A DNA stretch of 64,000 nt from Malacoraja senta (taxonomy: Eukaryota): positions 16,432,001 to 16,496,000 of the forward strand of contig CM075988.1 in assembly GCA_038087875.1 (NCBI GenBank). Direction: 5' to 3'. Under the pieces are notes generated by a model that ran no database searches, was not told the DNA's origin, and worked only from the letters and a program-made list of their open reading frames with translations. The position numbers and the translations under genes were made by a program. Shown one piece after another: positions 7,302 through 58,131 of the stretch; the first letter of the stretch is position 1; every line of letters begins with the position of its first letter.

Positions 7302-8019
7302 TAAATGATAGGGGCATCTCACAAAAATGTGATTTTATCTTAAAGCTACTTATAATTACCTGGGTGTTATTATAAAGCAACAGCCAATCTCAGAGAAAGG
7401 TACTCACAATGTTATTGGTGTGGATGTGATCCAAGTAACTGAGCAATCAATAACAGTTTTGAATTCTCGAGAATGGTAAAACAGTATTATTAGCTAATTT
7501 TTAATTCACTTCAAACATTTTGCAGAAAGTAAAATAAAGATTAGAAGCATACACATGAAATTAAAACAGATCCTAAACATTTAAAACTGGAATTGTGAAA
7601 TTATTGGCCGAGGAAATGATAGTTCACAAAAGATTAGAGGTTTAAGGTCAGAGATGTTGGTAAATAGTAATTATGGCTTACTATGCTGTTTAAAACTCAC
7701 ATCTCAATCAACAACGTAACATTTTTAGGGTATTTTACAGCCAGAATAGTTGGCACACATTTGGAGATCCTATCAATTTATGATTATACTGGAAAACCCA
7801 GCAACCAAGCTTCCTGTAGACACAAGTTATCTCAGAGAGTGAGGTCTGGAGTTCCTACCTAATTACACGTGGTTTCTCCAGCTGTTGCTGTGAAGCTTTC
7901 TCCCTGATAATGGTGAGCACTGAGAGCCTCGTTGTTATTCTCAAAGCAAATTCTGGTTCTTTGTTTTATCAATTTGTCTTGTGTATGAATGGTAGAGTAA
8001 GTACCATATGATTTCTTCA

Positions 8020-19129: not shown

Positions 19130-19183
19130 ATGCTGGCCACTCTGATGGCAGTGTTGTTCCTTATCACCAGAGCAGTTGCGCAG
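19130..19183 (+). CDS. Candidate first coding exon encoding a signal peptide MLATLMAVLFLITRAVAQ
   Basis: ATG with A at -3, hydrophobic core, AxA cleavage motif, consensus donor CAG|GTGAGT; phase 0, matching the 23109 exon. Confidence 0.55.
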
Positions 19184-19937
19184 GTGAGTCTAACAGCATA
19201 AGTAACAATTGCTGTTAATAGCTGTGTTAAACATGATCTTTGCATCAATGTCATCTGTTTTCAGAAAAAAATAACTATTCACCTCTTTCCCTGATTCTAC
19301 CCATCCCCTCCCCCCCCACACCGATCAATCAAATGTACCGTAAGGATGAGGTTTTGTGATTATAAGGTCTTAGCTTGAACCCAGAACTGCGATCAGTGAA
19401 GTGATCTCGGATAAGTAGCATAGCTTCCGAAAGATATTGTGATCAAAAGAAAACCTATTATGGTTCATACCTAGCACTGTGACTTCTTATGAAAAGAGTG
19501 TGAATAAAGACATCTAGTGTGAATATAATGGTATTTCAGTGAAAGCAAGCTATGGAATTGTTCCAAACAGAGCAAGGTCTTTCTATATATTTCCGACTGT
19601 CTGCGCCACCTGTTATCCCCGGAACCACTTCCTTATCAAGGTCAGCTTTTTAATTAGAAAAATGTACTTTAATCGTGATAAAAAATATATACCAAACAAA
19701 AACTGCAGAACTCTTAATGTATTCTGAGTGTACATTCAATATTCAATTAGTAACTCAGTGGGTTCCTTAACTCACTGGAGAAAAGGACAGGTGATGTTTC
19801 AGGTTGAGACCCTTCTTCAGACTCCAGACATCTGCAGTTCCTTCCTACAAACTTCCCTTAAAGTCAGCCAGCCAGCCAGCCAAGAGCAATGTTTATAAAG
19901 TGGGATATTTTATGATTTACGTACTCTCTGAAATTTA

Positions 19938-20034
19938 TGTTGAGGTCGGAGTCGGGACTCTTTTACCGACTCCGACTCCAGCAGCACCAAAATTGCTCCG
20001 ACTTCGACTCGACAACTCCGACTCCACAGCCCTG
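19938..20034 (-). mobile_element. End fragment of a non-autonomous DNA transposon (hAT-like)
   Basis: Minus-strand terminus CAGGGCTGTGGAGTCGGAG with (GGAGTC)n subterminal repeats; the other end was not found. Confidence 0.5.
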
Positions 20035-20239
20035 TTCTGCATTGTACACAACAACAGAAAGTCCAAGACTTTATTGGTGGACGCAGGAAATGAAAGAATT
20101 TCCTGCCACACCGTCAGGAGGAGAATCGACTGATAAATCGATTGCTGCCAAATCACAATAATCAATCTCCATTTATCAATTAACAAAAAATTGACATGAT
20201 GGTGAAAGTTTGCCTACCATGGTTTCAAAGTCAGCTGTT

Positions 20240-20748
20240 CTAGTCACCCATCCAAATGAAGGGGATCATTACATTGGAAAGGGTGCAGAAAAAAGATTCA
20301 ATAGGATGTAACCCGAGCTTCCGGGTTTAGGTTATAGGGAGAGGTTGGATAGGATGGGACTTTTTTCATGGGAGCATAGGATGCCGAGACCTTATTGAGG
20401 TGCGCAAAATCATGAGGGCATTGGTTAAAGTGAATGTTCACAGTGTTTTCCAGGGTAGAAGATTCTAAAACTAGAGGTCATAGACTTAAGGTGAGAGTGG
20501 AGTGATTTAAGGGGCAACATTTTCACACAGAGTTGGTACTTCGTATCGGGAATGAGCTGCAGGAGGAAGAGATAGTAATGGTTAAATGACTTTTCAAAGA
20601 CATTTAGACAGATATATGGATAGGAGAGATTTAGGAGGTTATGGGCCTAATGCAGGGAACGGAACTATCTTAATATGCCCACTTGGTCGACATGGACAAG
20701 GTGGACCAAAGGCCTAGTTTTCATGCCATTCTGCTCTATGAGCCTATG
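20240..20748 (+). mobile_element. Old CR1 LINE 3' fragment
   Basis: LERVQ...SYRERLDR.GLF...KTRGHRLKV-like sequence; similar fragments at about 27470, 28000, 38560, 39225(-), 41825(-), 43225 and 53610(-). Confidence 0.8.
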
Positions 20749-21559
20749 TTCCTCACCATCATGCAGTACTTATCCCTTGTCATTTGACAAATTTCATATA
20801 TGTAATATTTGATGTATTTTTAATTGGCCTAAATATGCAACACAACCTCAAGTAATTTTTTAGACAATTTAGACTTGAGATTCAAAAGGACTTGCCGGCA
20901 TCCTCTGGGTCTCCGATTTCCTAAGTGTTGAATGTAATATAAGGTATTTTGTCTTCAAATGTGTTTTAAGTTTTTGGCTGGTAGAGATACCAAATGCCTG
21001 ACACGACCTCCTGGGGCTAGTAAGTAAATCTGGAAACTAAAAGAAAAGCTTGCTCATCGTAAGACCACCAAAAATTGTGCAGATGATTAAAAACTGTAAA
21101 ATAGTTGTAGTAGCAGTTTATCAGTTGTAACAGTGTTTTCAGTTATCACTTGGAATGCCACAGTGGCAGCTACCTCATAGAGCCAGGGACCTGTTCCTTG
21201 GGTGCTGTCTGTGTGGTGTTTGTTCATTCTCCCTGTGATCGGGTGGGTTACCTCCAGGTGGTCCAGTTTCCTCTCACATCCCAAAGATGTGTGGGTTTGT
21301 TGCTTAATTGGCCACTGTAAATTGCACTTAGTGTGTCGGGAGTGGACGAGAAAGTGGGATAACACAACTAATGTGAACGGGTTGGCATGGACTTGGTGGG
21401 CAGAAGGGCCTGTTTCCATGCTGTATCTCTAATTTAAACTAAACTAGGCTGAGGTACAGATTTTGTAGGATTCACAAGCCTAATATGATTGAGCACCTTC
21501 GGGGGGAGAGAGACGCAGCTATTTTACACTAGCTTATCTCACCTCTCTTCATAGGTAGA

Positions 21560-21929
21560 CACAACCTGGTGCAATCCATACACAATTATTGGATACTGTC
21601 TACAAAATTAAATAATTACAATGGAGGTGATGTTTAAGAAAGAACTACAGATGCTGGAAAAATCAAAGGTAGACAAAAATGCTGGAGAAACTCAGCGAGT
21701 GAGGCAGCATCTATGGAGCAAAGGAATAGGTGACGTTTTGGGACTCGACCCGAAACGCACCTATTCCTTCGTTCCATGGATGCTGACTCACTCGCTGAGT
21801 TTCTCCAGCATTTTTGTCTACCTTTGATTTTTCCAGCATCTGTAGTTCTTTCTTAAACATCACCTCCATTGTAATTATTTAATTTTGTAGACAGTATCCA
21901 ATAATTGTGTATGGATTGCACCAGGTTGT
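21560..21929. repeat. 370-bp inverted repeat (Penelope palindrome plus mirrored flank)
   Basis: ACAACCTGGTGCAATCC... is mirrored by ...GGATTGCACCAGGTTGT; centre at about 21745. Confidence 0.93.
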
Positions 21930-22595
21930 TTGTGCAGAATGTCCTTGTGGCACTGCCCACCTGGATCGCCAGAATAGATTGGCAGAACTCAATTAATTCT
22001 TTCAACGTAATGGCAGCACCTCTAACAATGAGGCACTCCTAGAGTGCTGCTCTTAAACCTCCATCAAGAGAATCTACTTGGGATGAGACTTCAACTCCCA
22101 GTCTGACATCTTAATTGAACAACCAAGATGGGACCAGAGGAGCAAACGAAAAATGTCTAGCCCTATCGCAGTGTGAACAGATCATTGCTGATTATTAACG
22201 TGCTAATTTTCTCAGTTGATGGTGTTACATCTATTTGAGCATTTCGGTGAGTTGGTTTAAAAAAAAGTATTAAGACCAAGAAGATTTTTCATGGCCAAAT
22301 ATTTAATGGGTGATTATGTTGAAAGAGCATTTATTAGCATAATGACATCAGTAATAAATGCCGGCTCTTTCAACGAAATCAAGGGCCACTCACACCACGC
22401 ACATTCCCTCTTCTCCCCTCTCCATCGGACAGAAGATACAGAAGCACCTACCAGATTCAGGGACACCTTCTTTCCCACTTCCATTAGACTATAGAAGGAA
22501 CCTTTCATGAACCAATGGTGTGGTCCCGATCTCCCCACCTGCCTCGTTGCAGACCATGCACTTTTTTAATCTCCCCTTCCTCTATAAGTCGGTGT

Positions 22596-22660
22596 AGTTA
22601 TATAGATAACTATATAACTATATAGATAACTATATAACTAGATTAGATATAACTAGATTC
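22596..22660. repeat. AT-rich short tandem repeat
   Basis: Repeated TATATAGATAAC/TATATAAC units. Confidence 0.75.
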
Positions 22661-23108
22661 TTGATAACAACTAGAGAGCAGTCCTGAGCTACTATCTACC
22701 TCATTGGAGACCCTTGGATTATCTTTTATTGGACTTTATGTTGCACCAAATGTTATTCCCTTTATCATGTTATTCCCTTTATTCCCTTTATACACTGTGA
22801 CTGGCTTGATTGTAATCACGTATTGTCTTTCCGCTGGCTGGTTAGCCAACAAGAGCTTTTCACTGTACCTCGGTACATGTGACAATAAACTAAACTAAAC
22901 TCGTAATCTCACTATATTCTCCACTCTGGTTATTTTCTCTTTGCACTACTTGTTGATCTGTACTTGCGTATCGCTTGATTGTAATCATGTCTGGTACGAT
23001 TTGACTCGATTGCATTCAAAACACGTTTTTCATTGTCTTTTGGTACCGGTGACAATAATAAACCAATACGAATAATGCCCATTCTTGTTATCCTGTGCCA
23101 TTCTGAAG

Positions 23109-23219
23109 ATTGGGACCAGCTTTTACCGGCAGGAGCCAGTGCACTACCAGGTGAACCAACCGCTGCCCTGGAAAGTTCAGAACGTCAGCCGCAATCGAAG
23201 ATCCAGTCGGGTCGATGAG
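23109..23219 (+). CDS. Candidate internal exon IGTSFYRQEPVHYQVNQPLPWKVQNVSRNRRSSRVDE
   Basis: Pyrimidine tract plus AAG acceptor, GAG|GTAAAA donor; 111 nt, open in phase 0, GC3-rich codons. Confidence 0.55.
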
Positions 23220-26200
23220 GTAAAAGCCATTGTTCCTCTCAGATTATAGATTGATTGCTGTAAAAATGTGCACATAAATCGCGACCACTGCTAAAATAGA
23301 CCACCAACGTGCTCTGATCAATGTGAGTTCAGACTCTAAATTCTTCTTGTGTGAGTACAAAAGCTTAAAAACACTTTTCATCAGGTTTAGGAACGGCCTC
23401 TTCCCCGAAACGACCTGTCATATGCTAAGGTCGTAGTCTCGATCTCCCAACCTACCTCATGTACTATTCTGCTTCTGAGTGTTTAGTTTAGAGACATAGG
23501 CCCTTCAGCCCTCCGAGACCACACTGACCAGTGATCCCTGTACACTAGCACTATCCTACACACTCGGGACAATTTTATAATTTTAGCTTAGCCATTTAAC
23601 CTACAAACTTGTACGTTTTTGGAATGTGTGAGGAAACCGGACCATTCTAGCGAAAAGCCACGTGGACATGGGGACAACGTGCAAACTCCATACAGACAGT
23701 ACCCGTAGTCAGGATCAAACCCGGGTCTCTGGCACCGTAAGGCAGCAACTCTACCACTACGCCACTGTGCCTCCCGAGTGTTTTTGGAGGTTTGGGTTAT
23801 GTTAGTTTGTAGGTCTGAATTACGTATGCTTGTTCTTGATTCAGAGGGCCGTGAATTTCTGCAGAGAGTCAAATACTACAATCTAAACTGGTGCCCCATG
23901 TGCAGCTCTGGGGGAATCCTGTTTTGTCTTCCAGCTGAGGTGTTGTTTGCTTTCTGAAAGGAGCAGCGGCAGTCCTTGGACGAGGAGTTCATATGTTGGT
24001 GTTTGTATGAGCTGCTTGTCATCCTTCCTCCATCACAATAGGAATATGAAAGTTTGTGCTTGGATCTGTGGTGCTGTGTGGGGAGAAGTGAAATGGTCCC
24101 TCAATCAGAAGATAGAGAGATACAGCGTAGAAAAAGGACCTTCGGATCACTGAATCTGTATCAACTATCGACCACCCATTTACATATCCTCCATTGATCC
24201 TATCATTTTTATTAGCAGATCAAACAGCACAGTAGTTTAGTTTAGAGATACAGCGCGGTAGCAGGCCCTTTGGCCCAGCGAGTCCACACCCGCACATTAA
24301 CATCACCCTACACACACGAGGGACAATTTTACATTTACACCAAGCCAATTAACCTGCAAACCTCTACGTCTTTGGTGTGTGGGAGGAAACCGAAGATCTC
24401 GGAGAAAACCCACCCAGGTCACAGGGAGAATGTACAAACTCCGTACAGACAAGCACCCGTAGTCAGGATCGAACCTAGGTCTCTGGCGCTGTAAGGCAGT
24501 TGCTCTACCGCTACGCCACCGTGCCGCCACTACAGTAGCACAGGAACAGGTCCTTTGCCTCACCATGTTTGCACCAATCATGATGCAAACTCAACAGAGA
24601 CAACACCTGAGATGAGGATTGAATCGGGTCTTTGGTTTGGGTTTCGGTTTATTCTGGCCACGTGTACCCGAGGAACGGTGAAAAGCTTTGCTTTGCATGT
24701 CATTCCATCATATAAAGGGGAAGATACAGAGTGCAGAATATCATTCTCTGCATTGCAGCGCACCAGTTCTATGGACAAAGTCCAATGCCTGCAAGGGGGT
24801 AGAGGTGAATCGGACAGTACCTTAGTTTATGGAAGGACCATTCAGAAGCCTGATTGCAGAGGGGAAGAAGACCAGATTGCAGTCTGGTGGTGTGGACTGT
24901 AAGATACTGGATCTGCTCACAACATTGTACCACGGACTTCAGAGTAAAACTGAATGCTCCTCTGGGCTGCCGTGCTGCTATACGCACGATTCCAATACTG
25001 AGAGAGTGCTAAAACGTTTCACCAGTTCTCTTGTACGTTGATGTTAAAGGTTGGAGTTTGAATTGTCCAAACATTTAGTCTGGGAATTTCTTATCGACTT
25101 ATTTCCTCGCAGACAGAATTGTAAATGACTCTTAAGAGTTTGGGATTGACAAATGTCATGATTTGTGAACGCACGGTGGACATTCTGTTCCTGACTCACA
25201 CATTAGCTGCTGCTGTGATGTGCGAACAGCACTGTACAATTGAATATATTATTGATATACAAAAGGTGCAAGATCTAAGATGAAAAATATCCTGCAGATT
25301 CCTTGTTTATTCAGACACTGAGTGGAAAGAGGCATGTTGTATTGTCACACAATTTAATTCTCCAGTGTATTCATTCACAGATTGCGGGCAGTTACTGGGC
25401 AGCATAATGTGGCCAAGGAATCATGTTCGGGGAGACTAAATAAGCGCAGCAGATTGCCTTCCCTGAAGCAAATCTGATTTTTATGACATTGTAATAAGTT
25501 CACAGCCACCATTATTGATGCTAGCTTTTTAATCACAGATTTTCTTAATTCATTGAATTAAAAACTCCCTACATGCGCAGTGGTGCAATTTGAACTCCGA
25601 ACCTTAATCCAATAACATAGCCTCCTGTGTACCATAGCCATCCGAGCAATATGCCGCGATTTAGTTTAAAATCCGCACAATTGGCAAAACCTTGAATGCT
25701 TCTGAGTGGAATTGAAGTGAATAGAAGAGAGGAGGAAAAAGAGTGCATTGAAATTAATTAAAAATGACTTGCATCAAAACAAAATTCACCTCGCTGCGCA
25801 AGCAATCCACCCATCCTCTTCATCTCTGCACCTGCTCCAGTATTTGAAGCCCTGACTAGAGAGATTAAGGCATTGTCGATCCTCTGCAAATAAAATACAG
25901 GGACGTGGAAGCCATCTTGATATTCAGATAACACGATCTCCAACGATGACAGTAAAATAACCAGAGCAAATGAGTAGGACCCCGGTGTGGAGTGTCGGCT
26001 TGTTGCTTGACTGATGCTATTTCCAGCCAGCGTTGACATATTTATAATTCCTTAAACCCTGCTGTAGCTTCCACCATCTGTGCATCTCCAGCAGAAAAAA
26101 AAGTGACCTTCCTGTGCCAAGGGAAAGCAGCGGAGTCGAAGGAAAAGGAAGGCAAAATTTGCTGGCTCATAAGGAATGTTGCCATGTCAGAACTTGACAG

Positions 26201-29200
26201 CTGATTAGATATTCTGACTATCGGTTCCAAGAAAGAGTGAACTCCTTCCACAAAGCCAAAAATCAACACCATCGTTGGGCCTTAGAAGACCAAACCCTTT
26301 CTGACTAACTTATCAATTAACTTTTCAGATAATGTTTTGCCACAAAAAGCTTTTGCTTAAAATAAAAATCTCTAAGAGGAGAATGAATTCTTATAGGGAG
26401 GTAAATGGATATTGGTATCAGTAGGATTAAGAAGTCAGTCATAGTCATACTGCACAGAGACAGGCCCTTCGGCCCAATGCATCCATGCCGACCAAGATAC
26501 CCTATCTAAACTAAACCCATTTTTGCCACATTTGGCCCATATCCCTCCAGACCTTTCCAAGTGTCGTTTAAATGCTGTTGTGGTGCCTATGAAAGTCATT
26601 TTTTTGTTTTGAGGATAGAATTTCTTTTCTTCAAACATATTAATTCATCGGCTTTACTATTTTGGGAAATGCCAGTTTTTATTAGCTTAGATTAGTTTGG
26701 AAATAGAGCATGGAAATAGGTCCTTTGGCCCACCTAGTGCATGCTGACTATGTGGCAACAGCTCTACCAGCTACACCACACCTTGCCCTCCCAATACGGA
26801 AACTGAATATGTCAGATTATATAATGTGTTCCTATTATTGCAGCAAAGATGAAACCAAAGAGTTAGGTTTGTATTGGCCGTTTGTATATTCCTAATTTTC
26901 ATTGCTCCACCATTATTGGCTGCAACTTCACCTGCCAAGTCCTAAACTCTGTAATTCTCTCTAAATCTCTTTGATTCTATCCTTTCCTTTAAAGATCCCC
27001 CACTATTTCCTCCAGGTGAACTTTGATCTGCCTTCCTGCTGACCTGAATGGTTTGCATCCATTCTTGTGATACAGATTGGGATGTTTTAGAGTATTAATA
27101 TAAACATTATTGTGGAATATTGCAAACCTTCTTGGCATCTTCTGAGGCAATTTGTTCTAAATTTCCAAAATGTTAGGTTTAATTCTTCTTGCAAAAGCCT
27201 CTGGCTAAATATCATGTGGCAAGTATTATCCCTTTTTTTTTAGCTCTTCATTTGCCAAATGCTTAATTGATCCAAATCTTTTAACACATCTTTTGCTACA
27301 TCCCCTGATTCTAAACTGCTCTTAATTTGGTGTGCCACCATCATTAACCGAATGTGGCATTCTCCACTGCATGAAGCGTACGAGAATGGCATCATGTTGC
27401 AACTTTATACCTACCTGTTGGCAGCTCTGGTCGCAAGACAAAGGAGATTCACATGGAGGTGGCTGAATTGGAGCATAGCAGTTATAGGGAGAGAATGGAT
27501 TTATCCCTGGAGCAAAAAGTGACTGAAGATGACCTGATTGAGGTAATGAAGGGAATGAATTGGGTGGATAGTCACAACCATTTTTGCGTGGCGCGAGTGA
27601 TTAAAACATGAGTGGCAAAGCTACAAGCTGAGATTTAGGAGGTTTAGAGGGGATCTGAGCGTGGGTTTTTGTTTCGTACAGAGGGTTACTTTAGACTTTA
27701 CTTTAGGTGGCGCTGACCATGGCTGCCTCACCAATGGTCTGTCTCATCTTTTTCCTTCTTTGTTGTTTTTGGTTTGTTGTAAAATGTATGTTTTAGAGTA
27801 CTTTTAGTTTTGTTTTGTGTGGGGGTGGGGGAATTAAACAAAAAAAATTTGTTTAGGGCAACTTTTTTCCGTGTCGTATCTCCGTCCGTAGTCACGATCA
27901 AACCCGGGTCTCTGGCGCCGTGAGGCAGCAACTCTACCGTTGCGCTACCGTGCTGCCCACTAACATTTCAATTAGAGGGAGAGTATGGAAAGGCTAGGGT
28001 CGAAAGAGACTGTAGGTGACCTGATAGAGGTGTAGAAAGAAATGAGGGAATGAATCAGGTGGATAGGAAGAACCATTTTTGAATGGTGGGAGTGATTAAA
28101 ACATGAGTGGCATAGCTACAAGCTGAGAGGTAGGAGGTTTAGAGGGGATCTGAGTATAGATGTGACTTTAGACTGAGCATAGGCTTTAGAGATACAGCAT
28201 GGTAAATTTGAGAATTCCTCTTAATTCTCCTTCTGCCTCTTTTAGTTGATCCTATTCCTTGCTCATCTGCTTTCCTTTTAAATGCATCAATGCCATTCAC
28301 TTCAACTGTTCATACTGCACAGAAACAGGACTTTGTCCCCGTCCGTCCTCCCCCCCCCCCCCGCCCACTCCACCCCCCAGACCATGGTAGTTATCTATAC
28401 TACCTATCCATTTACCTGCATTTGGTGGCTGGTGATTCAAGTGCCTGTCTAGATGCTTCTTAAATGTTGTGAGAGTAATTGCCTCCATGTCCACAAGCAG
28501 TGCATCTTAGAATCCAAGCACTTGCTTGCAAGGGAAGCTTAGAGGCGCAGCGGTGGAGTTGCTGCCTTTACAGTGCAAGAGCTGGGGTTCGATCCTGACT
28601 GTACAGAGTTTGTACGCTCTCCCTGTGTCCGCATGGGTTTTCTCCGGGTGCTCTGGTTTCCACCCACATTCCAAAGACATGCAGGTTTGTAGGTTAATTG
28701 GCTTCTATAAATTGTCCCTAGAGTGTAGGATAGTGCTAGTGTAGGGGGTGATCACTAGGCAATGCGGACTCGGTGGGCTGACGGGCCTGTTTTTTCATGC
28801 TGTATTTCTAAAACTAAAACTAAAGCTGAATACAACCACTTCTCTCACTGCGCTCTGTCCCTGGACTCCAGATAGAGTCTAATGGTCTTGCTTGTTCTTG
28901 CTTGGATCACCCTCCATTGTAGTGGGTCAGACCTGGCATCGGTTTGGTAGCCCTCATTCATTCAGAAGGCATGGACTAAGTTTAAAAAAAAATTGTTTAA
29001 TGTTTTTGATAAATCTAAATATATTTATATATTCTCCGTTCAATTGTAATCGTCAGAGGCACTTAAACCATTAAAACGCCTTGCTAGTTTGATACGGACT
29101 CCCAGCCTTGCCTTCTGCCAAAGACCAGCTGGGCCTTTTTGTGTGTAGTAGCTCTGCTCCATGCTGCCTGAGGTCTGATTGCCCGACTCGAGTGTGTGTG

Positions 29201-30014
29201 GAAACTCAGTCAGATCGCTCGTCCGTGTCCAGACAAGATGAATATTGATATGGGGAGGAGTGCAGGCAGTGGAGTAGATGATCCAACCTATTGTATTTAC
29301 TCTTCCATTACCACATTCGGTAGCTATGAGAACATTGTCATGTCAACAAGAATATAGAGAAGTAATATCTATGTCTATGTTTAAAAGATTTGAGATAACT
29401 ACTGCTGTAGACAAATATCGGTTTTAACGCAAATGTCACCACACATCCCATAACATAGCTGAGCGTATCTCATTCCGAAATATCCCAGTGACTATGATGC
29501 AGACTAAACCTTTCCATTGGATGAGGTAGGCTGGAGACCCCACTATTTCACCAATCAGTACCATACGAATAAACTGTAATTGATTTGACAAAGCTGAATC
29601 TTGAATGTTATTTCTGCTGCACCAGTTTGCTGAGAAGGGAGAGAATTACATTTATTCACTCTAACCACCACAAAAGAAAAGTCCAAGAATTGCAACACAT
29701 TACGTCATAGCAGAAATTCCTCCATTCAAGATTATTGGTTATGAATTTGAGTTGCAACTTCTTTTGAAAGAAATGTTCTTTGGTCTAAATGTATAAAATC
29801 AAAATCAAAGCATGTTCTAGATTTATCTTATCTTGTAAATAACTTTAAAAAACAAGAGGAATGAAAAGCACTTCACCACTGCAAGAAGCACCCTTATCGG
29901 TTTTAAGATGTGGGTAACAGACAGGGCATCAAACTGATTCTTGGTTAAGAGAGTGGTCACTATATCAGCATAATTTACAATGACCACTTATACAGACTCT
30001 TCTTTTTTCTTTAG

Positions 30015-30073
30015 GAAGGACGGAGGCTCTCGATGAAGCCGTGTTAATCGCTCGAAGGGCAACACAGCAAGAG
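30015..30073 (+). CDS. Candidate internal exon of the plus-strand small gene (reading frame ambiguous)
   Basis: Strong acceptor CTCTTCTTTTTTCTTTAG and donor GAG|GTAGGT; 59 nt of non-repetitive, GC-richer sequence. Confidence 0.55.
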
Positions 30074-30679
30074 GTAGGTTTCCAATTTCCACCTGGCAAC
30101 CATTCAGAATTTGAACTGCAACCATCTGCCTGAGCTTCTGAGGGCCGTCTCCAAATGTCCACACGACTGTTCAGAGAGCCACGGGATCTGGAGAGCGCGA
30201 TTACCAACTCAAACCCTTTGGAAGACTGGTGCCCTCAAATATTTATTTTTTAAAAGTCACCGCTTTTATATAACACCTTGCATGTCCCCTTCAGAACAGA
30301 CAAAAAGTATTTCAAACCTAATGAAGTACTTTTAAAATGAGTCAAAGTGGAAGATGCAGCAGCCATTTGTGCCTTGCCAGCTCCAACAAACAGAGATGTG
30401 ATAATGGATAATCTGCTTCAGTAGGATTGATAGGGGGGCACACAGAGCTCTCTGATTTTGGTTCAAATGGGAAGCCTTTAGTTTAACATCTAATCTTGGA
30501 AACAGGGCAAGCCTCGCTGGCTGGACTGATCGGAACAGCTACTGAAACTTAAGTCAGTCTCAGGCTTGGGGACAGACCCGAACTGGTTGTTTGCTGCACT
30601 GGAGCTTCCGTCTAGAGCTTCGTAGTTTAGTTTAGAGATATAGAGTTTAGCCTCTGTATTCAATCGCTGGATACCACCA

Positions 30680-30895
30680 TACCCCTCCCACCTATCACCC
30701 TCCTTCCCCCACCCCCACTGTTCTCCCACCCCTTCCTCCCTCCCATCCCCCCTCCCTCCCCTACCCCTCCCCCCCAGGCCCCTACCATCTATCTCCATCC
30801 CTTCCCCAATCACCCCCCCCATCCCCACTAAGTTCTCTCCCTCCTCCCTCCCCTACCCCTTCCTCCATCCCATCCCCCTCCTCCTTCCCCCCTCA
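30680..30895. repeat. C-rich polypyrimidine low-complexity tract
   Basis: Many runs of CCC and longer; G-quadruplex/triplex-prone composition. Confidence 0.8.
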
Positions 30896-31063
30896 ATCCA
30901 TCAACATAAATCAAATAACACCCACTGAGTCCAATTATAAACCAAGATCACACCCATGCAAGGATGTACAATTACCAGTAGATAACCTGACATCTACCAT
31001 GTTCAGTTGCCTTAAAACCAAAAAATGGTTGAGAATGGAGAAAGTATGAACAGTAACCCTGCA

Positions 31064-31582
31064 GTTGACACTAAAGTGGGTGGTATCGTGGATAGCGAAG
31101 ATGGTTGTCAAAAGTTACAGCAGGCTCTTGATCAGTTGGGCAAGTGGGCTGGTGAATGGTGATGGAGTTTAATGCAGATAAGTGCGAGCGAGGTGTTGCA
31201 ATCTGGGAAGTCAAACTGGAGCAGGACCTATACAGTGAATGGCAGGGCCCTGGGCAGTGTTGTAGAGTAGAGGGTTCTAGGAGAGCAAGTGCTTCTTTTC
31301 TTGAGAGTGGTCGGGGAATCAAGAACCAGAGGACATAATAGGAACCTGAGGGGCAACTTTTTCACGCAGATGGTGATGGATATATGGAACTGCTGCCAGA
31401 GGAGGTAGTTGAGGCAGGTACTATAGCAACATTTAAAAGACATTTGGAGAGGTATGTGGATAGGAAAGGTGTGGAGAGATATGGGCCAAATGCAGGCAGA
31501 TTGATTTAGTGTAGATGGGGCATCTTGGTCGCCATGGGCAAATTGGGCCGAACTGCCTCGTTCCGTGCCCTATGACTATGAC
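31064..31582 (+). mobile_element. CR1 LINE fragment with internal deletion
   Basis: DTKVGG...LDQLGKWA...MEFNADKCE joined to the 3' end; (CTATGA) tail. Confidence 0.85.
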
Positions 31583-32858
31583 TCAAACTAAAATCAGCGT
31601 TACTGTCATTTCTACTGAAAGTTAAGAAATGTTCATAATCTGTTTATAATATTGAGCAGTCTTGGGCTGTATAACTTATTGCCTTAATATATGAATGTGA
31701 TCTAGGTTACCTGGACTAATTCTAATCTGTAACAGCTGGTGTAGGCTCTATAACTGGCCAACTGTCTCTTTATTTGAGAAGGAAAAACAAGAGTGAAGCA
31801 TTGGTAGATTCTATATGATGGGTTAAAATGTAAAAAGTACCAGTAGAGGGAGTACTCAGTCAATCAAACCAAGAGTAGGAAGAATTTCCAAAATGTTTCC
31901 CCATGATTGGTCAGAGATGGTGCAAGGCTCACCTGAGCCAAAGTGAGCTGTGCTGCCCTTTGTGTGTGAGTTCAGGTGTGGTCTTGGACAGATGCAAGAG
32001 CATCACCAGAGCAACATTGTTTATGTGTTTGAGACTTGATAAAATAAACCAGTTCAATATGTGGTGTCGGAAGAAGGAACCTTTAAAAAGTTCAAAATGC
32101 TTCCCGCCTCCAACCTTCCTCTTCCTCCTGGTCTTTTATCCTCGACGTGGCATCAACTACCTTGACTTCTCCATGTGCCTCACCCATTCCAATCTCACCC
32201 CACACCCCCCAATCACACAGGTCTCTGCTCTCTCCCCACACCAATGCCGTCCTTGCCATCAAACCCGCGGACAAGGTTGGTGCTGTTTGGTGTTAGTTCT
32301 AATTTTAGATATGCAGGGAGGAAACAGGCCCTTCGGCCCACCAAGTCCTCACCGACCAGCGATCCCCGCACATTAACACTATCCTACACACATTAGGGAC
32401 AATTTACACTAATACCAAGCCAATTAACCTACAAACCTGTACGTCTTTGGAGTGTGGGACTCCTCTCCCTCACCTCTTTATAATGGCATCACGGAATCTT
32501 CGTCAGTACCTAGAGCAGTGTTAATGGCAACTCTGGACGAACTGCAGAAACAAAGGCAGGAGTTTTAACGTTAGGCCCAATTAAAATCACGGGCCAGTTT
32601 GTTGTGAAAAGCGAGACTGGTACTAAAAGTTAGACCGATGCAAATGACGAAGCCATCTCCATCCATGTGGCTCTTCTACATACATGCTCAGACATTAAAT
32701 CTTGTGCATCCAATCATTTAGATTGAATTTTCTCATCTTTAAACTTCGCACAAACTTATCTCGTAGCATCTCGCAGGAGGAAGACATGGATATCACAAGT
32801 TGTGACAAATCCATCACTGTCACTGTATGATCTTAAGTTTCTGCTTGTGAATTTGTAA

Positions 32859-33166
32859 AGGGCCTGTCCCACTGTACGAGGTAATTCAAAAGCTCTCCCG
32901 AGTTTAAAAAAAAAAGAAACTTGTGGTAAGTACGTAGAATATACATAGCGGCTACGTCGGAGCTCGTGGATGTCTCGTAGCGGCTCGTAATGCTAACGGC
33001 AGGTACTCGGGAAACGCCGTAACTTGTGAAGTTTTTTCAGCACTGTGAAAAATGTCCACGAGAGCCCCGAGTACCTACGAACGGCTATTACCCGTAATTC
33101 TCCGAGTTTGAATCGGGGGAAACTCAGGAGAACTCTTGAATTACCTCGTACAGTGGGACAGGCCCA
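32859..33166. mobile_element. Harbinger-type MITE
   Basis: TAA TSD; TIR GGGCCTGTCCCACTGTACGAGGTAATTCAA. Confidence 0.9.
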
Positions 33167-35689
33167 TAACTTTCTACAATCTATGAAGGAGCTGGGTTAA
33201 AGTTATTCTACAATCTCTCTGTCTTCTCATCAGACAAACATGTTCCATCTTGCTTAGAGTCAGGAGATCTCTCCAGGTAGCACATCCTTACTACCCTACT
33301 CTAACGTTACTGAGCCTACCCTTTCCAATATGATTACTTGCATGGCTTCATTTTGAGAGAGCCCTCAACTTCAATGACATTGTTCTTTCTGAAAAACACC
33401 TCCACCCAATTTTCTGCAAGAACTGAATTGATCCTGCACTTTATCAAAAACCTCAACTGTGGCATTGGATCCATGCGGCCAACATGCATTGTTCTCGTTT
33501 TATCAACTGCAAGACCAGTGGCGCAGCGGGTCGAGCTGCTGCCTCACATGCCAATGACCCGGGTTCGATCCTGTCCTCGAGTGCTGTCTGTGTGGAGTTT
33601 GCACGTTCTCCCCATGGGTTTCCTCTAAGTGCTTGGGTTATCTCCCACATCCCAAAGACGTTTGGGGTATGTAGGTTAATTGGCCTTCATGAATTGCCCC
33701 TAGTATGTAAGGAGTGGATGAGAAAGTGGGATAACATAGAACTAGTGTGAATAGGTGGACTTGGCGGGCTGAAAGGGCCTGTTTCTATGCTGCATCTTTA
33801 AACTAAACTAAACTAAACCTAACTCAACAATCTTATACCTGAGCCTGTAATTCTGGGCTGGGTTATTTTTGGTTGTCTAAGCTTGAGTACCATCACTTCC
33901 AACCTTCACGGTGAAGTTACTGTGACTCATCAAGCCACCACCTTTGGGCAGCTTCAATTTTTTTCCAACGGTGCAACATACAAACTCTTGTGAGATTGTG
34001 TTTCGGAGTGTGAAAATGTAGCATGTTAAAGTTGGCAACATGGGTCCAATGCCAACGTTCTTAGACTTTATGATAAAGTAATGTGTTTAGTGTGAAAACG
34101 CACACCTCCAGATTCAGGGACAGCTTCTTCTCAGCTGTTAAGAACAAGCAACTGATTCATTCTACCACAACTAGAGAGCAGTACTGAACTACTATCTGAA
34201 GGTCCTGACCTAAAATGTTACTTATTTCTTCTATCCAGAGATACTGCCTGTCCCGCTGAATTACTCCAGCATTTTGTGTCTATCTTTGGTGTAAACCAGT
34301 ATCTGCAGTTCCTTCCTGCACATACTATCTATCTCTTTGGTGACGCTCGGACTATCCTTGATCGGACTTTGCTGGCTTTACCTTGCACTAAACACTATTC
34401 CCTTACCATGTGTAAATGGCTCAATTGTAATCATGTGTTGTCTTTCTGCTGGCTGGTTAGCACACAACAAAAGCTTTTCACTGTACCTCGGGTACAAGTG
34501 ACAATAAACTAAACTCAAACTAATGTGCTCAGAAATATATGAACAAGCTTAAAAGTGGTGTCTCATTTGTTTCCAGGCTGCACACAGTGATGGCAACAGT
34601 GATATGGTGTGTATTTACATATAAAATGTATTTTTGATTGATGGCATGCATTGTTGCTCTGGTGATGTACCGAGTACCTGTACCTTCTTTGACCTGGGTG
34701 CTGTTGGAGCTGGAATCACCCAGGCCAGTGCAGAATATTCGATCCAGGTCCTGACTCGAGACCTGAAGATGGTGGAAAGCCTTGGGGGGGCATCTAGAGG
34801 TTAGTCAGTTGCTGTAGGATGCCCAGCCTCTGGCTTGCTTTCATTGTCACAGTAAATATGTGGTTGGTATGGAGGAGATTTGTCCCATGATCATGGTGAG
34901 GGACTCGAGCAATGGCTCAGCTTTAAAAATTCTCCTCCTTACTTTTACATTCTAAACATTCTTTCGGGTAGTACAGTGGCACAGCGGTAGAGCTGCTGCA
35001 TTACAGTGCCAGAGACCTGGGTTCAATCTTGACTGTGGGTTCTGTCTGTATGGAATTTGTGCATTCTCCCTGTGAACGCACGAGTTTCCTCTAGGTGGTC
35101 CAGTATACTCCCACGTTCCAAAGACATGCAGGTTAATTCGGTTCTGTAAATTGTCCCTAGTGTGTAGGATAGAACTAGTCTACAGGTGATCGTTGGTCGG
35201 CACAGGCGTTGTATCTCTTTATCTTGGAAATCACCTCCATTTCTTCCTAGTTGTTCACCATTCAGATTTAAAAATGTGAATCAACTTTGTGATCCTGATA
35301 GAACTTTTGTAGAAAATGACATAATTATGTATGTAATCCTCCCTCAGAGATATGTATTTCTCTAATTTTGATCTTCTATTTATCCCCAAATGTAATCATC
35401 CCCATCACCAGTGCTGAGTCTATCTGCGAGGCAAGCTCCTGCAATTCTTCCTCCTGCATTTGACTGTCCACTTCTTTTCCCTCCCATTATGATGGTCCTT
35501 CAAATATAGTGCCTTAAAATCTACCGACCAAACTTGAAATCATTGCTTGTACAGCTCAATGGTGTTGTTGAAACACCATCCATAAGCACCTTACAAAAGA
35601 AGCAAATATATGATCAGAGGAATGTAAAGGGAATGCAGATAAAATGGAGAGTTGGATTAGCCCGCACAGTCTATGTTTAATCCAGGTAG

Positions 35690-35898
35690 AAAGGAACTGC
35701 ACATGCTGGTTTACACCAAAGACAGACACAAAGTGATGGAGTAACTCAGCAGGTCAGGCAGCATTTCTGGAGAAAAAGCATGGGTGTCGTTTCGGGTCGT
35801 GGCCCTTCTTCAGACCCGACCTGAAACGTCTTCCATCCTTTTTCTCCAGAGATGCTGCTTGACCCGCTGAGTTACTCCATCACTTTGTGTCTATCTTT
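35690..35898. repeat. Penelope-derived palindromic element
   Basis: GACACAAAGTGATGGAGTAACTCAGC...GCTGAGTTACTCCATCACTTTGTGTC; related copies at about 1785, 12025, 43726, 46566, 48180, 54528 and 59772. Confidence 0.8.
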
Positions 35899-37346
35899 TG
35901 TTTAATCTTTTTGGAATTGTCTGAATTGTGCAAACAAACCGAGATCCCATCAATAAAGATAAAGCTGACATTTGACAGTTTCAACCGATTCGTTTAACCC
36001 GGCACCTTGATACAGCACTGCCAGGTCGTAATGTCCTAATCTACACCGACAACAAATAAAAATTAAAATGGACCTTCAAAAAAATCGGAAAGATAATGTT
36101 TTAAAATGAATAATTTATCGTGATTGTCTTGACTATTAGAAGCAAGAAACAGTGTTAGTCTCGGATATTATATCATTTTGATGTGGTGAAGCAATAATAG
36201 ACATCCCAAGGTTTAGTATCCCTGGTTATATATCAATGCAAGATATCTTGACGTTAAATGATAGAATTAGCTCATTACTGTAAAAAAAAATGAGTTTTCA
36301 AAATGCAATTCCACCTCAGGGGCCAATATTACATTTTTTAAATTTTATGGCAAGCAAAGCATTTTGGAAAATGAGCACTAGCTGCGATGAGCAGAAGCAT
36401 GCAGCTCGAGTATAAGGGGAGAATTGTTAGATAGCCATTTATAAGCTGTTGTTCTGAGGACATGCATTTGGCTGACTGCTCCTGAAACTGCCATTGTTAC
36501 AAAAACATATTTATGCTCGTCAACAAAAGGTTCTAGTGAAAATGCCTCAACAGTCCCCATACTCTCAGAACCACTTATTGCACGGTGTATTTTAGAAAGT
36601 TTTCAAACGTGGGTGGCACATTGGGGCAAATGGAAGTGCTGCCGTCTCTCAGCAACAGCGACCCAGGTTCGATCCTGACCTCGGGCGCTGTTTACATATT
36701 CTTGCTGTGACTGTGTGGGTTTCCTTTGATGCTCTGGTTTCCTTCCACACTCCAAACACATGTGGGTCAGCAGATTTATTGGATATCAATGAGACTTTAT
36801 TGTCACATGTACATAGGTACTGCGACATTCTTTTTTTTGATATACAATTCAGTAAATCTTACTCTACCCAGGCAAAATCATACCTTGGCACAAGAGTGGA
36901 AGAATAGTAGATTACGCTGAGGCAGTACTCAAGAGTTGCAACGTTTTTGGTGAATTAACCAAAATTGGTTAATTGTATCTTTCCAAGTTTCAGTTCTTAA
37001 ATATAGATCCAAATTTCAGTTCAGTTTAGTTTATTGTCACGTGTACTGAGGTACAGTGAAAAGCTGATCATTGTAGCTATCCAGTCGGCAGAAAGACAAT
37101 ACATTAATACATTTGATCCATTTATAGTGTATAGATACATGATAAGGGAATAATGTTTAGTGCAAGACGTTTCCGGTCAAGATCCTTCATCAGCCTGACT
37201 TCAGTAAGTTCTGCTTTGATTTCAGATCTCCAGCATCTCCAGTATTTTGCATTCAGATGCATATTGATCATAACACAGTTGAGAGACATGACTGACAAAA
37301 TAATTTTTTTAAACAATTAATTTATATTTTTGCTTTATGTCTGTAG

Positions 37347-37465
37347 GTGTTAAACGTTGGGAAGAAAATATCTTTGCGGAACTCAGCCTGGAGAGTGTAG
37401 CTATGACCATCCAGACACAATACCGGAGATATCAAGAATGCAAAAAGTATGAACAAAATCCATAA
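37347..37465 (+). CDS. Terminal exon encoding a PCP4/PEP-19-like IQ calmodulin-binding motif
   Basis: Acceptor TTTTTGCTTTATGTCTGTAG; phase-1 frame xVKRWEENIFAELSLESVAMTIQTQYRRYQECKKYEQNP*, resembling PCP4 GQKKVQEE...AAVAIQSQFRKFQKKK; AATAAA at 37732. Confidence 0.7.
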
Positions 37466-38204
37466 GTGATGTGGAGACACAAGAGACTGCAGATGTAGGA
37501 ATCCCGAGCAAAAAGATGTGGTCTGGACCACTGAGTTCCTCCAGCAATTTGTTACTTCCATAAATGATGTGTTCTTGATGATGTCCCTCATGTGTAATGT
37601 TCAATATAAGGCCAAGTGATTGGAATTTAACATTAATGTTCAGTGTTTAGATACCAGGTCACAGACGTAAAGCTAGATCATGTCCATTCTCCTGCATGTG
37701 ACTTATTGATCTGTATATTTCCATGATCTTTAATAAAGATTAGGAAAACAAGAACCAAATGCTATAACAAGGAATTGCAGATGCTGATTATACCAAAGAA
37801 AGACACAAAATGCGGGTGTAACTCAGCAGGTCAGACAGCATCTCTGGAGATCATGGGTAAGTGACGTTTTGGGTCGGAAGGTTGATTGCAGGTTAGTTCC
37901 CATACGTTGATTGGAGACAGGTGGCCCAGGGAAAGGTTCATTCAAAATCACAAGCATGCCATCAGTGTATTCCAATGTCAAGGGTTCAAACTGCCTCCAT
38001 CAATGGCCTTGAGTATCCTCTCTGAAATGAATTTAGTGAGAGTAAACTCAAGTTCTCTTTTTAGCTGTGTCAACCACAGGTCTCTGGGGAACACTCAAAC
38101 CTCTGTGATCCTGTCATTAATATTGAAACACATTGAGTTAGAAATGCGTTCACACAACTCTGAAATAGAAGAAAAATACATTGTGTTGTTGAAAAATCAG
38201 TTTA

Positions 38205-47281: not shown

Positions 47282-48181
47282 CATAGATACATAGAAAATA
47301 GCTGCAGGAGTAGGCCATTCGGCCCTTCGAGCCTGCAGTGCCATTCAATATGATCATGGCTGATCATCCAACTCAGTATCCCGTACCTGCCTTCTCTCCA
47401 TACCCCCTGATCCCTTTAGCCACAAGGGCCACATCTAACTCCCTCTTAAATATAGCCAATGAACTGGCCTCAACTACCCTCTGTGGCAGAGAGTTCCAGA
47501 GATTCACCACTCTCTGTGTGAAAAATGTTTTTCTCCTCTCGGTCTTAAAGGATTTCCCCCTTATCCTTAAGCTGTGACCCCCTTGTCCTGGACTTCCCCA
47601 ACATCGGGAACAATCTTCCTGCATCTAGCCTGTCCAACCCCATAAGAATTTTGTACGTTTCTATAAGGTCCCCTCTGAATCTCCTAAATTCTAGCGAGTA
47701 TAAGCCAAGTCTATCCAGTCTTTCTTCATATGAAAGTCCTGACATCCCAGGAATTAGTCTGGTGAACCTTCTCTACACTCCCTCTATGGCTATAATGTCC
47801 TTCCTCAGATTTGGAGACCAAAACTGTACGCAATACTCCAGGTGTGGTCTCACCAAGACCCTGTACAACTGCAGTAGAACCTCCCTGCTCCTATACTCAA
47901 ATCCTTTTGCTATGAAAGCTAACATACCATTCGCTTTCTTCACTGCCTGCTGCACCTGCATGCCTACTTTCAATGACTGGTGTACCATGACACCCAGGTC
48001 TCGCTGCATCTCCCCTTTTCCTAATCGGCCACCATTTAGATAATAGTCTGCTTTCCTGTTTTTGCTACCAAAGTGGATAAACTCACATTTATCCACATTA
48101 TACTGCATCTGCCAAACATTTGCCCACTCACCCAGCCTATCCAAGTCACCTTGCAGTCTCCTAGCATCCTCCTCACAGCTG
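47282..48181 (-). mobile_element. CR1 LINE 3' fragment
   Basis: LQGDLDRLGEWA...LVRPHLEYCVQFWSP...QRVVNLWNSLP plus 3' UTR. Confidence 0.95.
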
Positions 48182-48559
48182 ATGTTTCTGGCCTTCTGGC
48201 CTTTTCTTACCTCCAGTTCCCTCCCCTCTACTTCCAGCCTGAAGAAGGGTCCCAACCTGAGACGTCGCCCATCCTTTTTCTCCAGAGATGCTGCCTGACC
48301 CGCTGAGTTGCTCCAACACTTTGAGTCTATCTTCGGTATAAACCAGCATCTGCAGTTCCTTTCTACACCCTTATCCAGAGATACTGCCTGGCCTGCTGAG
48401 TTGCTCCAGCAATTTGTGTCTTTCTTTGGATAAAGCTTGGAATTCAAATTAATGGTTTGGCCTGATGTCTCTCCCCAGTCATTCCTTTCAGAGCTCCCTA
48501 CATTTAATCAGCAGGGACAAAAGCTAAACCAAATCAGCAGACAACAGCATATAAACAAA

Positions 48560-48943: not shown

Positions 48944-49380
48944 CTACACCAGGGTGTAGGACTTTGAATAGGCTCCTGGCCCCTGCTTCTGTGACCTGCC
49001 CAGTCCAGCCGCGCTCATCTCTAGTAGCGAGTCTCTGGAGCCGCTGATTTTGGTGTGCGCGGGCAGCCGCGATTCGGCGGGGGCACTGGCGCCGCCTGTG
49101 TTGGCGCTGGAGGTGGTCGTGTTGGTGGAGGTGGCGGCGACGGGAGCCGTGGAGCCGGGCACGGTGAGAGTCCTCTGAGGTAAGGTGGCCGTGGCATGCG
49201 GGTGGATGGGCGGCTTGCTGTTGGGGTCGAGGGTCATGTGCCGGCCTTGTGCCTGGTATGCTCTGGCCACGCTCCGGATTGACGCTTCCCTTGGCGGCAC
49301 CACGGGGCAAGGGTCGCGGCCATCCGACTTGCGGAAGAATGCATCAGACTTGACGTACAGGGGGAGATTGCAATAATCAC
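48944..49380 (-). CDS. DSCAML1: DSCAML1 last coding exon
   Basis: TTTTACAG acceptor; GDYCNLPLYVKSDAFFRKSDGRDPCPVVPPREASIR...SRDSLLEMS...GAYSKSYTLV*; C-terminal PDZ-binding TLV; these motifs match DSCAML1 rather than DSCAM as recalled. Confidence 0.93.
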
Positions 49381-56647: not shown

Positions 56648-56714
56648 GACTCTATGACTTACATCTGGCAATAAATACAGTATAACTTTCAAAATCTTTG
56701 CGGTACAAATCCTT

Positions 56715-58131
56715 AAGAAAGACGGCAGAGAGAAAACAGGGAATTATAGACCAGTTAGCCTGACATCGGTGGTGGGGAAGATGCTGGAGTCAATTATAAA
56801 AGATGAGATAGCCGAACATTTGGATAGCAATAACAGGATCGGTCCGAGTCAGCATGGATTTACAAAGGGGAAATCATGCTTGATTAATCTTCTGGAATTT
56901 TTTGAAGATGTAACTAGGAAAATGGACAAGGGAGAGCCAGTGGATGTAGTGTACCTGACTTTCAGAAAGCATCTGATAAGGTCCCACATAGGAGATTAGT
57001 GGGCAAAATTAGGGCACATGGTATTGGGGGTAGAGTGCTGATATGGATAGAGAAGTGGTTGGCAGACAGGAAACAAAGAGTAGGGATTAACGGGTCCCTT
57101 TCAGAATGGCAGGCAGTGACTAGTGGGGTACCGCAAGGCTCGGTGCTGGGACCGCAGCTATTTACAATATACATCGATGATTTGGATGAAGGGATTCAAA
57201 GTAACATTAGCAAATTTGCAGATGACACAAAGCTGGGTGGCAGTGTGAACTGTGAGGAGGATGCTATGAGAATGCAGGGTGACTTGGACAGGTTGGGGGA
57301 GTGGGCAGATGCATGGCAGATGAAGTTTAATGCGGATAAATGTGAGGTTATATCCACTTTGGTAGCAAAAACAGGAAGGCAGATTACTATCTAAATGGCG
57401 TCAAGTTGGGAAAAGGGGAAGTACAACGGGATCTGGGGGTCCTTGTACATCAGTCTATGAAAGTAAGCATGCAGGTACAGCACGCAGTGAAGAAAGCGAA
57501 TGGCATGTTGGCCTTTATAACAAGAGCAATCAAATAGAGGAGCAAAGAGGTCCTTCTGCACTTGTACAGAGCCCTGGTGAGACCACACCTGGAGTATTGT
57601 GTGCAGTTTTGGTCCCCTAATTTGAGGAAGGACATTCTTGCTATTGAGGGAGTGCAGCGTAAGTTTACAAGGTTAATTCCCGGGATGGCGGGACTGTCAT
57701 ATGCTGAGAGAATGGAGCAGCTGGGCTTGTACACTCTGGTGTTTAGAAGGATGAGAGGCTATCTCATTGAAACATATAAGATTGTTAAGGGTTTGGACAC
57801 ACTAGAGGCAGGAAACATGTTCCCGATGTTGGGGGAGTCCAGAACCAGGGGCCACAGTTTGAGAATAAGGAGTAAGCCATTTAGAACGGAGACGAGGAAA
57901 CACTTTTTCTCACAGAGAGTGGTGAGTCTGTGGAATTCTCTGCCTCAGAGGGCGGTGGAGGCAGGTTCTCTGGATGCTTCCAAGAGAGAGCTAGATAGGG
58001 CTCTTAAAAATAGCGGAGTCAGGGGATATGGGGAGAAGGCAGGAACGGGGTACTGATTGGGGATGATCAGCCATGATCACATTGAATGGCTCGAAGGGCC
58101 GAATGGCCTACTCCTGCACCTATTGTCTATT
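56715..58131 (+). mobile_element. CR1 LINE, 5'-truncated, RT to 3' UTR
   Basis: NYRPVSLTSVVGK, QHGFTKGKSC, SGVPQGSVLGP, KFADDTK and LVRPHLEYCVQFWSP motifs; few frameshifts or stops; (CTATTGT) tail. Confidence 0.95.

Follow-up and report, generated by a model that had tools for sequence, protein, structure and literature searches.

Small neuronal calmodulin regulators, namely PEP-19/PCP4, PCP4L1, neurogranin and GAP-43, are known from mammals. GAP-43 (neuromodulin) and neurogranin, the calpacitins, are small disordered proteins which retain calmodulin through an IQ motif; GAP-43 is tethered to the membrane at its N-terminus through palmitoylated cysteines, carries its IQ motif near that end and releases calmodulin upon phosphorylation. 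PCP4L1 is not known to have a hydrophobic N-terminus, and the terminal exon of PCP4 itself is a phase 1 exon. A study on PEP-19 (PMC5122967) reported that the protein depends on a segment comprising F30, D31, I32, D33, M34 and P37 to accelerate the binding of Ca2+; an IQ peptide that lacked the acidic sequence gave no increase of the Ca2+ on-rate. As to gene order, the text cited here from a 2026 preprint (10.64898/2026.04.14.718097) sets Pcp4 beside Dscam, and Cep164 beside Dscaml1, in gnathostomes and dates the Dscam/Dscaml1 duplication to early vertebrates; that text names no PCP4-like gene at Dscaml1, and its figure or supplements could show one.

The window analysed here is a 64,000-nucleotide stretch (C12:16432001-16496000) of the genome of the skate Malacoraja senta, in which the initial annotation had noticed a PCP4/PEP-19-like exon tail-to-tail with DSCAML1. 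This exon proved to be the last one of a larger gene. The explanation that best accounts for the whole of the data, and that we consider reasonably probable, is that the gene is a PCP4-family ohnologue encoding a membrane-tethered calmodulin binder, and that the copy in the window is broken.

Structure of the gene

A pyrimidine-rich tract (...tctgtag) ends at position 37346 and is followed by GT and the codons GTT AAA CGT, which is the start of a phase 1 exon. The frame from 37349 translates to VKRWEENIFAELSLESVAMTIQTQYRRYQECKKYEQNP and is closed by a TAA stop at 37463-37465, and an AATAAA lies at 37732-37737. The acceptor, the IQ-motif exon, the AATAAA and the convergence on DSCAML1 described in the initial annotation were all confirmed in the sequence. 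The upstream exons were placed by tblastn with the proteins of Rhinoraja longicauda and Mobula birostris, which gave a gene of four coding exons and 112 codons (19130-37465, + strand) with GT-AG ends and phases 0, 0 and 1. The features of the gene are:

7862..7912, + strand, alternative 5' exon; it corresponds to exon 1 in the X2 model of Rhinoraja (88% over 17 aa by tblastn)
19130..19183, + strand, coding exon 1 (54 nt, phase 0), with the start codon and a 13-residue uncharged hydrophobic run followed by Arg
23109..23219, + strand, coding exon 2 (111 nt, phase 0-0), with the end of the N-terminal helix, the conserved QPLPW block and an RRSS site
30019..30073, + strand, coding exon 3 (55 nt, phase 0-1), interrupted by a premature in-frame stop
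37347..37465, + strand, coding exon 4 (phase 1), with the PCP4-type IQ motif
37466..37737, + strand, 3' UTR, ending in the AATAAA at 37732-37737 (cleavage site putative)

The earlier view of the locus holds for the last exon, which is real, but the protein is roughly double the length of PCP4, begins with a hydrophobic helix and is encoded by three further exons upstream. In the alternative 5' exon, the start codon reads ATT in the window, and an in-frame ATG (7910-7912) stands at the end of the exon, followed by a GTGAG donor; transcripts with this exon could encode a form that lacks the hydrophobic helix, and the use of the exon in this species is putative. The same exon structure was found in a teleost genomic contig of 4.5 kb retrieved by a metagenome scan with the family alignment: its exons 1-3, of 54, 114 and 43 nt, have phases identical to those in the window (0/0/1), exon 3 is open, and the contig ends before exon 4. 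A metagenome scan with the chicken protein gave no match.

The exon 4 peptide alone, searched against 1.84 billion representatives, matched two chondrichthyan proteins labelled 'uncharacterized', those of Rhinoraja longicauda and Mobula birostris (78% and 62% identity, E 1e-9 and 7e-5); the third match, a repeat IQ protein, is unrelated. With a profile built from orthologues only, the exon scored 46.5 bits (an E-value of 2.8e-12 in a set of 25,654 six-frame ORFs), and by protein search it is single-copy in the genome. Taken by itself, it reached 13.3 bits against the Pfam IQ family, under the cut-off of 20.3, and searches of the PDB and the Atlas with the bare exon returned generic IQ matches only. 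A word-based protein search, run with exon 4 and two additional codons, gave no match.

Orthologues and phylogenetic range

Of the 8,000 candidates scored in the profile search, 79 proteins came back as matches, 75 of them with E <= 2.1e-5; the last four, with E >= 0.1, were sodium-channel-type IQ fragments. An organism name is carried by 65 of the 75 matches and is missing from 10. The named matches come from sharks, rays, bowfin, gar, bichir, sturgeons, teleosts, frogs, tuatara, turtles, lizards and birds, and cluster look-ups for 10 of the matches added chicken, duck, medaka and others. Mammals were found neither among the 65 named matches nor in these look-ups, although their absence from the retrieved records is not a proof of mammalian loss. 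Within teleosts, the matches belong to eel-like fishes, bonytongues, smelts and spiny-rayed fishes; zebrafish, catfish and herring have no record among the 65 named matches, which may point to a second loss or to incomplete coverage by the search. The gene had been supposed to be retained in cartilaginous fish. Open orthologous exons were indeed found by the protein search in other sharks and rays, but the supposed range was too narrow, as it extends to bony fish, frogs, reptiles and birds.

For the phylogenetic tree, one full-length isoform per species was used, leaving out fragments, long 5'-extended models and unnamed records. The resulting tree (39 rows) agrees with the species tree, with the window copy as sister to Rhinoraja (support 98/91, 79% identity). 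Judged from these sequences, the gene forms one orthologous group whose age is that of jawed vertebrates, and it survives in every sampled jawed-vertebrate group but mammals. Concerning expression, the complete 112-aa protein of chicken has been recorded from Logan contigs no longer than 1,679 nt, whereas other Logan products run from one exon into an intron; the full-length products would therefore most simply derive from spliced RNA, and we take the Logan records as an indirect sign of expression. A search of sequencing runs listed nine runs and no RNA run among them: two contained all the query words and possibly stem from the source itself, four from two other organisms contained 0.29-0.39 of them, and three had small shares; we draw no evidence from these.

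Existing gene models already represent the orthologues, such as LOC144608778 in Rhinoraja, LOC119954159 in Scyliorhinus and A0A8V0ZZV7 in chicken, and none of them is marked as a separate paralogue. Their labels are 'uncharacterized', 'hypothetical' or 'Secreted protein', and one Dissostichus record was automatically named 'Calmodulin regulator protein PCP4'. In a literature search that left subscription papers mostly outside its reach, the text found on PCP4 and DSCAML1 synteny named Pcp4 beside Dscam only. No paper was found on the PCP4 paralogon or on PCP4/PCP4L1 ohnologues, nor for six gene or accession identifiers; PCP4 did not occur in the papers listed for elasmobranchs, and the names pcp4l2, pcp4c and pcp4-like 2 were absent from the papers listed for them. 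The gene is thus already predicted in databases, where it is unnamed, and no description of it was found in the literature searched. It would have stayed hidden under 'uncharacterized' labels because mammals seem to be without it.

Protein architecture

Three parts are conserved in the alignment, namely an N-terminal stretch, a QPLPW-type block (PQPLPW) and the IQ motif. The N-terminal stretch contains a 13-residue uncharged, mostly hydrophobic run followed by Arg or Lys in 38 of the 39 rows (16 residues in the remaining one), after which an amphipathic turn follows. In the block, Q35, P36, P38, W39, V44 and R48 are invariant; an R[RK]x[ST] site of the PKA type is present in 38 of the 39 rows; and the IQ core residues A91, A92, I95, Q96 and K106 are invariant in 35 sequences from sharks to birds. 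AlphaFold predicted helices at residues 2-23 and 88-110 joined by a low-confidence linker (mean pLDDT 65.8, pTM 0.27).

The 14 residues before the IQ motif are unconserved and contain one to five acidic residues in the 39 rows, compared with six in the PCP4L1 of this genome and seven in PCP4. The initial annotation had regarded the motif EENIFAE as the replacement of the acidic stretch of PEP-19; this motif turned out to be skate-level sequence within a poorly conserved linker and is not found family-wide. The PEP-19 acidic segment with its alternating hydrophobic anchors, Asp31/Asp33 and Pro37 is absent from the family, and the small (about 60-70 aa) soluble disordered form of the PCP4 family is not seen either, the protein having about 111 aa and a hydrophobic helix. 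Since both of these PEP-19 properties are lacking, the family was not classified as a PEP-19-type tuner.

Relation to the PCP4 family and genomic neighbourhood

Searched against the PDB, the 35-sequence family profile found PCP4 first (2n77_B, E 2.3e-6) and IQSEC1 next (E 0.009), and a seven-row profile also found human PCP4 first (E 2.9e-4); in both cases the next IQ protein was 50 to 4,000 times weaker. Neurogranin and GAP-43 are absent from the 10 PDB matches (up to E 10) of the family profile. With a C-terminal profile built without the window, the window exon scored 46.5 bits and PCP4L1 38.2 bits, while the 30 best Pfam-IQ loci fetched reached at most 15.4 bits. A feature-based Atlas search with the shark C-terminus ranked an unnamed chordate cluster first (0.92), followed by PCP4 (0.90) and PCP4L1 (0.88). 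By these comparisons of sequence, the IQ exon belongs to the PCP4 family, which bears out its description as PCP4/PEP-19-like. The PCP4-homologous part is confined to the last 35-45 residues or so (profile positions 68-111), and exons 1-2 match nothing in PCP4.

A motif search located PCP4L1 of this genome in a repeat-rich region of another contig (last exon C5:42532552-42532686, - strand, L046). Its IQ exon is also a phase 1 terminal exon, and the IQ motif lies 22-29 codons from the acceptor in both PCP4L1 and the window exon. The 200 kb around PCP4L1 consist mostly of repeats, and no neighbour was recognised among the features listed.

The neighbours of the new gene on both sides are:

48944..49345 (right bound approximate), - strand, last coding exon of DSCAML1, with the stop at 48944-48946, converging on the PCP4-like gene
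C12:16282001-16432000, upstream neighbours DPAGT1-like, HINFP-like, C2CD2L-like and H2A (X-like) (L016, L019, L021 and L030)

The PCP4-like gene and DSCAML1 stand tail-to-tail, with their ends 11,479 nt apart. The last DSCAML1 exon found no relative in the PDB, and the identity of the gene rests on an FN3 exon (L080) that lies further upstream in it, about 113 kb past the end of the window, and matches human DSCAML1 (PDB 1va9) with E 1.1e-46 and few differences. The tail-to-tail arrangement is established for this genome. On the other side, within 200 kb, a glycosyl-transferase-4 exon (DPAGT1-like) was found above the cut-off, together with a C2CD2L-like exon (SMP_C2CD2L, E 0.001) under the cut-off, a histone H2A (H2AX-like) gene and a fourth ORF (L019) which we take to be HINFP. 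The DPAGT1, C2CD2L and H2A genes presumably sit with DSCAML1 on human 11q23.3. CEP164 was not recognised among the ORFs longer than 150 aa in the 200 kb, a search that short exons escape, and gene order near the DSCAML1 3' end may therefore differ from that of other gnathostomes. Heuristic searches of this genome (one Pfam family and three DSCAML1 exons) did not find DSCAM, and PCP4 proper was not found by heuristic searches either, whereas DSCAML1 and PCP4L1 were; an assembly gap, a withheld stretch and a true loss may each account for this and are indistinguishable here. A large clustered family of FN3-repeat genes was noticed on contig C18 (1.0-1.4 Mb and 7.0-7.6 Mb) and on small contigs; it consists of about 25 long ORFs in a single frame, of up to 1,274 aa, which scored near the cut-off of the FN3 family PF25059.

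The window also contains mobile elements. A Tc1/mariner transposase frame of 301 aa (5648-6553, + strand) has HTH_Tnp_Tc3_2 and DDE_3 above the cut-off and stops short of the usual length. The frame at 11046-11660 (- strand) had no Pfam match and presumably is a remnant of a Harbinger-type transposase, which it resembles. LINE reverse-transcriptase remnants occur at 47773-48507, 56658-58056 (RVT_1 at 56918-57391) and 63217-63720, and one of the LINE remnants sits just past the DSCAML1 stop.

How the gene came to lie beside DSCAML1 was considered in view of these data. That exon 4 is a chance IQ-like frame or a repeat remnant might be suspected from its score under the Pfam IQ cut-off and from the empty word-based search, but this is refuted by the chondrichthyan matches, by three more exons upstream in the right order, by the single genomic copy and by 75 homologues at E <= 2.1e-5, and we regard it as practically inconceivable. 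Best matches to a repeat or an unrelated IQ protein, which the initial annotation would have taken as a refutation, were not obtained; orthologues were found, and PCP4 is the top PDB match of the family profile. It is also conceivable, though improbable, that only the last exon derives from PCP4 and was taken over by an unrelated gene for a small membrane protein, or was duplicated locally, in which case the position beside DSCAML1 would be no echo of genome duplication. The four coding exons, and exons 1-2 without any counterpart in PCP4, would fit such a capture, but the tail-to-tail placement beside the DSCAM paralogue mirrors the Dscam-Pcp4 pair, the family is as old as jawed vertebrates, and the upstream neighbours are those that we place with DSCAML1 on human 11q23.3. 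An exon capture that took place after the duplication would be compatible with the favoured explanation. We therefore consider it likely, with good confidence, that the gene is the PCP4-family ohnologue of the DSCAML1 segment: the DSCAM-PCP4 pair and the DSCAML1 pair described here would descend from one ancestral pair via the early vertebrate genome duplications. Of the earlier proposal of a PCP4 paralogue in the DSCAML1 paralogon, family membership and tail-to-tail placement in this genome were thus established, while origin by duplication is what we infer.

Proposed function and the premature stop codon

The hydrophobic N-terminal helix and the lack of an acidic segment suggest that the protein is most likely a membrane-tethered cytosolic calmodulin binder and not a PEP-19-style tuner, a reading that we favour slightly. 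The run of 13 uncharged residues, which no charge precedes and Arg or Lys follows, would anchor the protein in the membrane and leave the remainder in the cytosol, although 13 residues are short for a membrane span. The IQ helix would hold calmodulin at the membrane at low Ca2+, and calmodulin would be handed on when Ca2+ rises or when the linker is phosphorylated, by analogy with membrane-bound GAP-43. Without the acidic segment, the protein should bind calmodulin and buffer or position it, but should not speed Ca2+ exchange.

In the window copy, exon 3 reads GAC GGA GGC TCT CGA TGA, and no open frame leads through to the IQ exon in this assembly. The stop is located as follows:

30034..30036, + strand, premature TGA (codon 61), located 37 nt upstream of the last exon junction, seen in one assembly

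Codon 61 encodes Arg in Rhinoraja and in 9/9 outgroup chondrichthyans, and TGA differs from CGA by one C-to-T change. At 37 nt from the last junction, the stop is within the roughly 50 nt in which transcripts usually avoid nonsense-mediated decay, and a peptide of 60 residues that consists of the anchor part may be produced. The protein would end ahead of the IQ exon, and this exon has begun to drift: the residues before the IQ motif are ESVAM in the window copy compared with E[RK]AA[VLIAS] in the orthologues, and R90S and A91V, just before the IQ motif, are among the changes of the window lineage. When changes were polarised, 15 fell on the window lineage (9 of them at or after codon 61) and 7 on Rhinoraja, with two ambiguous, an excess that is not significant (binomial p 0.13, or 0.19 without the stop). 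The window copy departs from the 31 conserved columns at four positions, one of them shared with other rays, and the other three are within the range of several intact orthologues. Decay is therefore suggested rather than shown. However, an in-frame TGA at codon 61 together with an altered, otherwise invariant residue before the IQ motif makes it probable that exon 4 is no longer translated in this individual. The window copy, with its stop taken from one assembly, has probably become a pseudogene recently or represents a null allele. In another batoid, Narcine bancroftii, which is on the longest branch of the family tree (0.56), three isoform models (P0008, P0011 and P0012) end inside the motif, a few residues beyond the IQ pair, and so cut it short; a second decay in batoids or a model error is possible.

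Two other readings have to be weighed against these, one for the protein and one for the window copy. The N-terminus could be a cleaved signal peptide and the protein a precursor of a secreted peptide, with cleavage near residue 15-17, a freed conserved peptide that spans the QPLPW block and ends at a conserved basic pair, and an IQ-like tail that is leftover or extracellular. The automatic name 'Secreted protein' of several members, the small residues at -3/-1 around position 15-17 in many rows and the invariant R48 with a second basic residue next to it agree with this reading, which is nevertheless unlikely, as it leaves unexplained the invariant IQ core from sharks to birds, and this invariance argues for a cytosolic calmodulin partner. 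Furthermore, no positive charge stands ahead of the hydrophobic run and one always stands behind it, a pattern that keeps the C-terminus cytosolic according to the positive-inside rule, and the predicted helix continues to residue 23. As for the window copy, the gene could be intact and the IQ exon translated, if the TGA were an assembly error, were present on one allele or were spliced out via the AG at 30056-57. All four exons keep their GT-AG ends and sizes without any frameshift, the rate excess is not significant, and this AG keeps the frame, as an exon 3 from 30058 would be a phase-compatible exon of 16 nt that bypasses the stop. However, the AG has no pyrimidine tract, skipping the whole of exon 3 shifts the frame, and the change is a CpG transition, which is the commonest kind of real mutation. 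In addition, the nine outgroups agree at positions 61, 63, 90 and 91, all of which are changed here, and one of these is invariant in all 35 family rows. An intact gene thus appears rather doubtful, and loss of the IQ exon from translation is the reading we retain.

Significance

Putting these results together, we tentatively propose that jawed vertebrates except mammals have an undescribed third PCP4-family gene on the DSCAML1 segment, which would be a membrane-anchored, kinase-switched calmodulin dock, and that mammals have lost it while batoids are losing its IQ motif independently. If this is true, a further small calmodulin regulator has been kept for more than 400 million years in fish, amphibians, reptiles and birds, and the empty slot of the DSCAM/DSCAML1 duplication is filled. 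The protein would also represent a new design, in which a hydrophobic anchor is combined with a PCP4-type IQ motif without the acidic tuning loop, and the gene is a natural comparison for what the acidic segment adds to PEP-19. That the window copy is probably broken lowers the value of this locus, yet it offers a dated loss to study.

Comparison with known calmodulin regulators

With PCP4/PEP-19, the new gene shares the PCP4-type C-terminal IQ helix, the position next to a DSCAM-family gene and the disorder outside the helices. It differs in length (about 111 aa compared with 62 aa), in the hydrophobic helix and the QPLPW block, which PCP4 lacks, and in that it was not found in named mammal records. 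Furthermore, the acidic segment described in the PEP-19 study (F30, D31, I32, D33, M34 and P37; PMC5122967) is not conserved in the new family. PCP4L1 is the best-scoring paralogue in this genome (38.2 bits) and likewise carries its IQ motif on a phase 1 terminal exon, but it keeps an intact acidic segment of the EEIDIDL type along with an intact IQ motif and sits on another chromosome-scale contig (C5). GAP-43 differs in the nature of the tether and in the place of the IQ motif, as the new gene has a hydrophobic helix as its putative tether and the IQ motif at the C-terminus. Compared with these systems, the gene represents a new architectural variant of the PCP4 kind and is probably the ohnologue belonging to the DSCAML1 segment.
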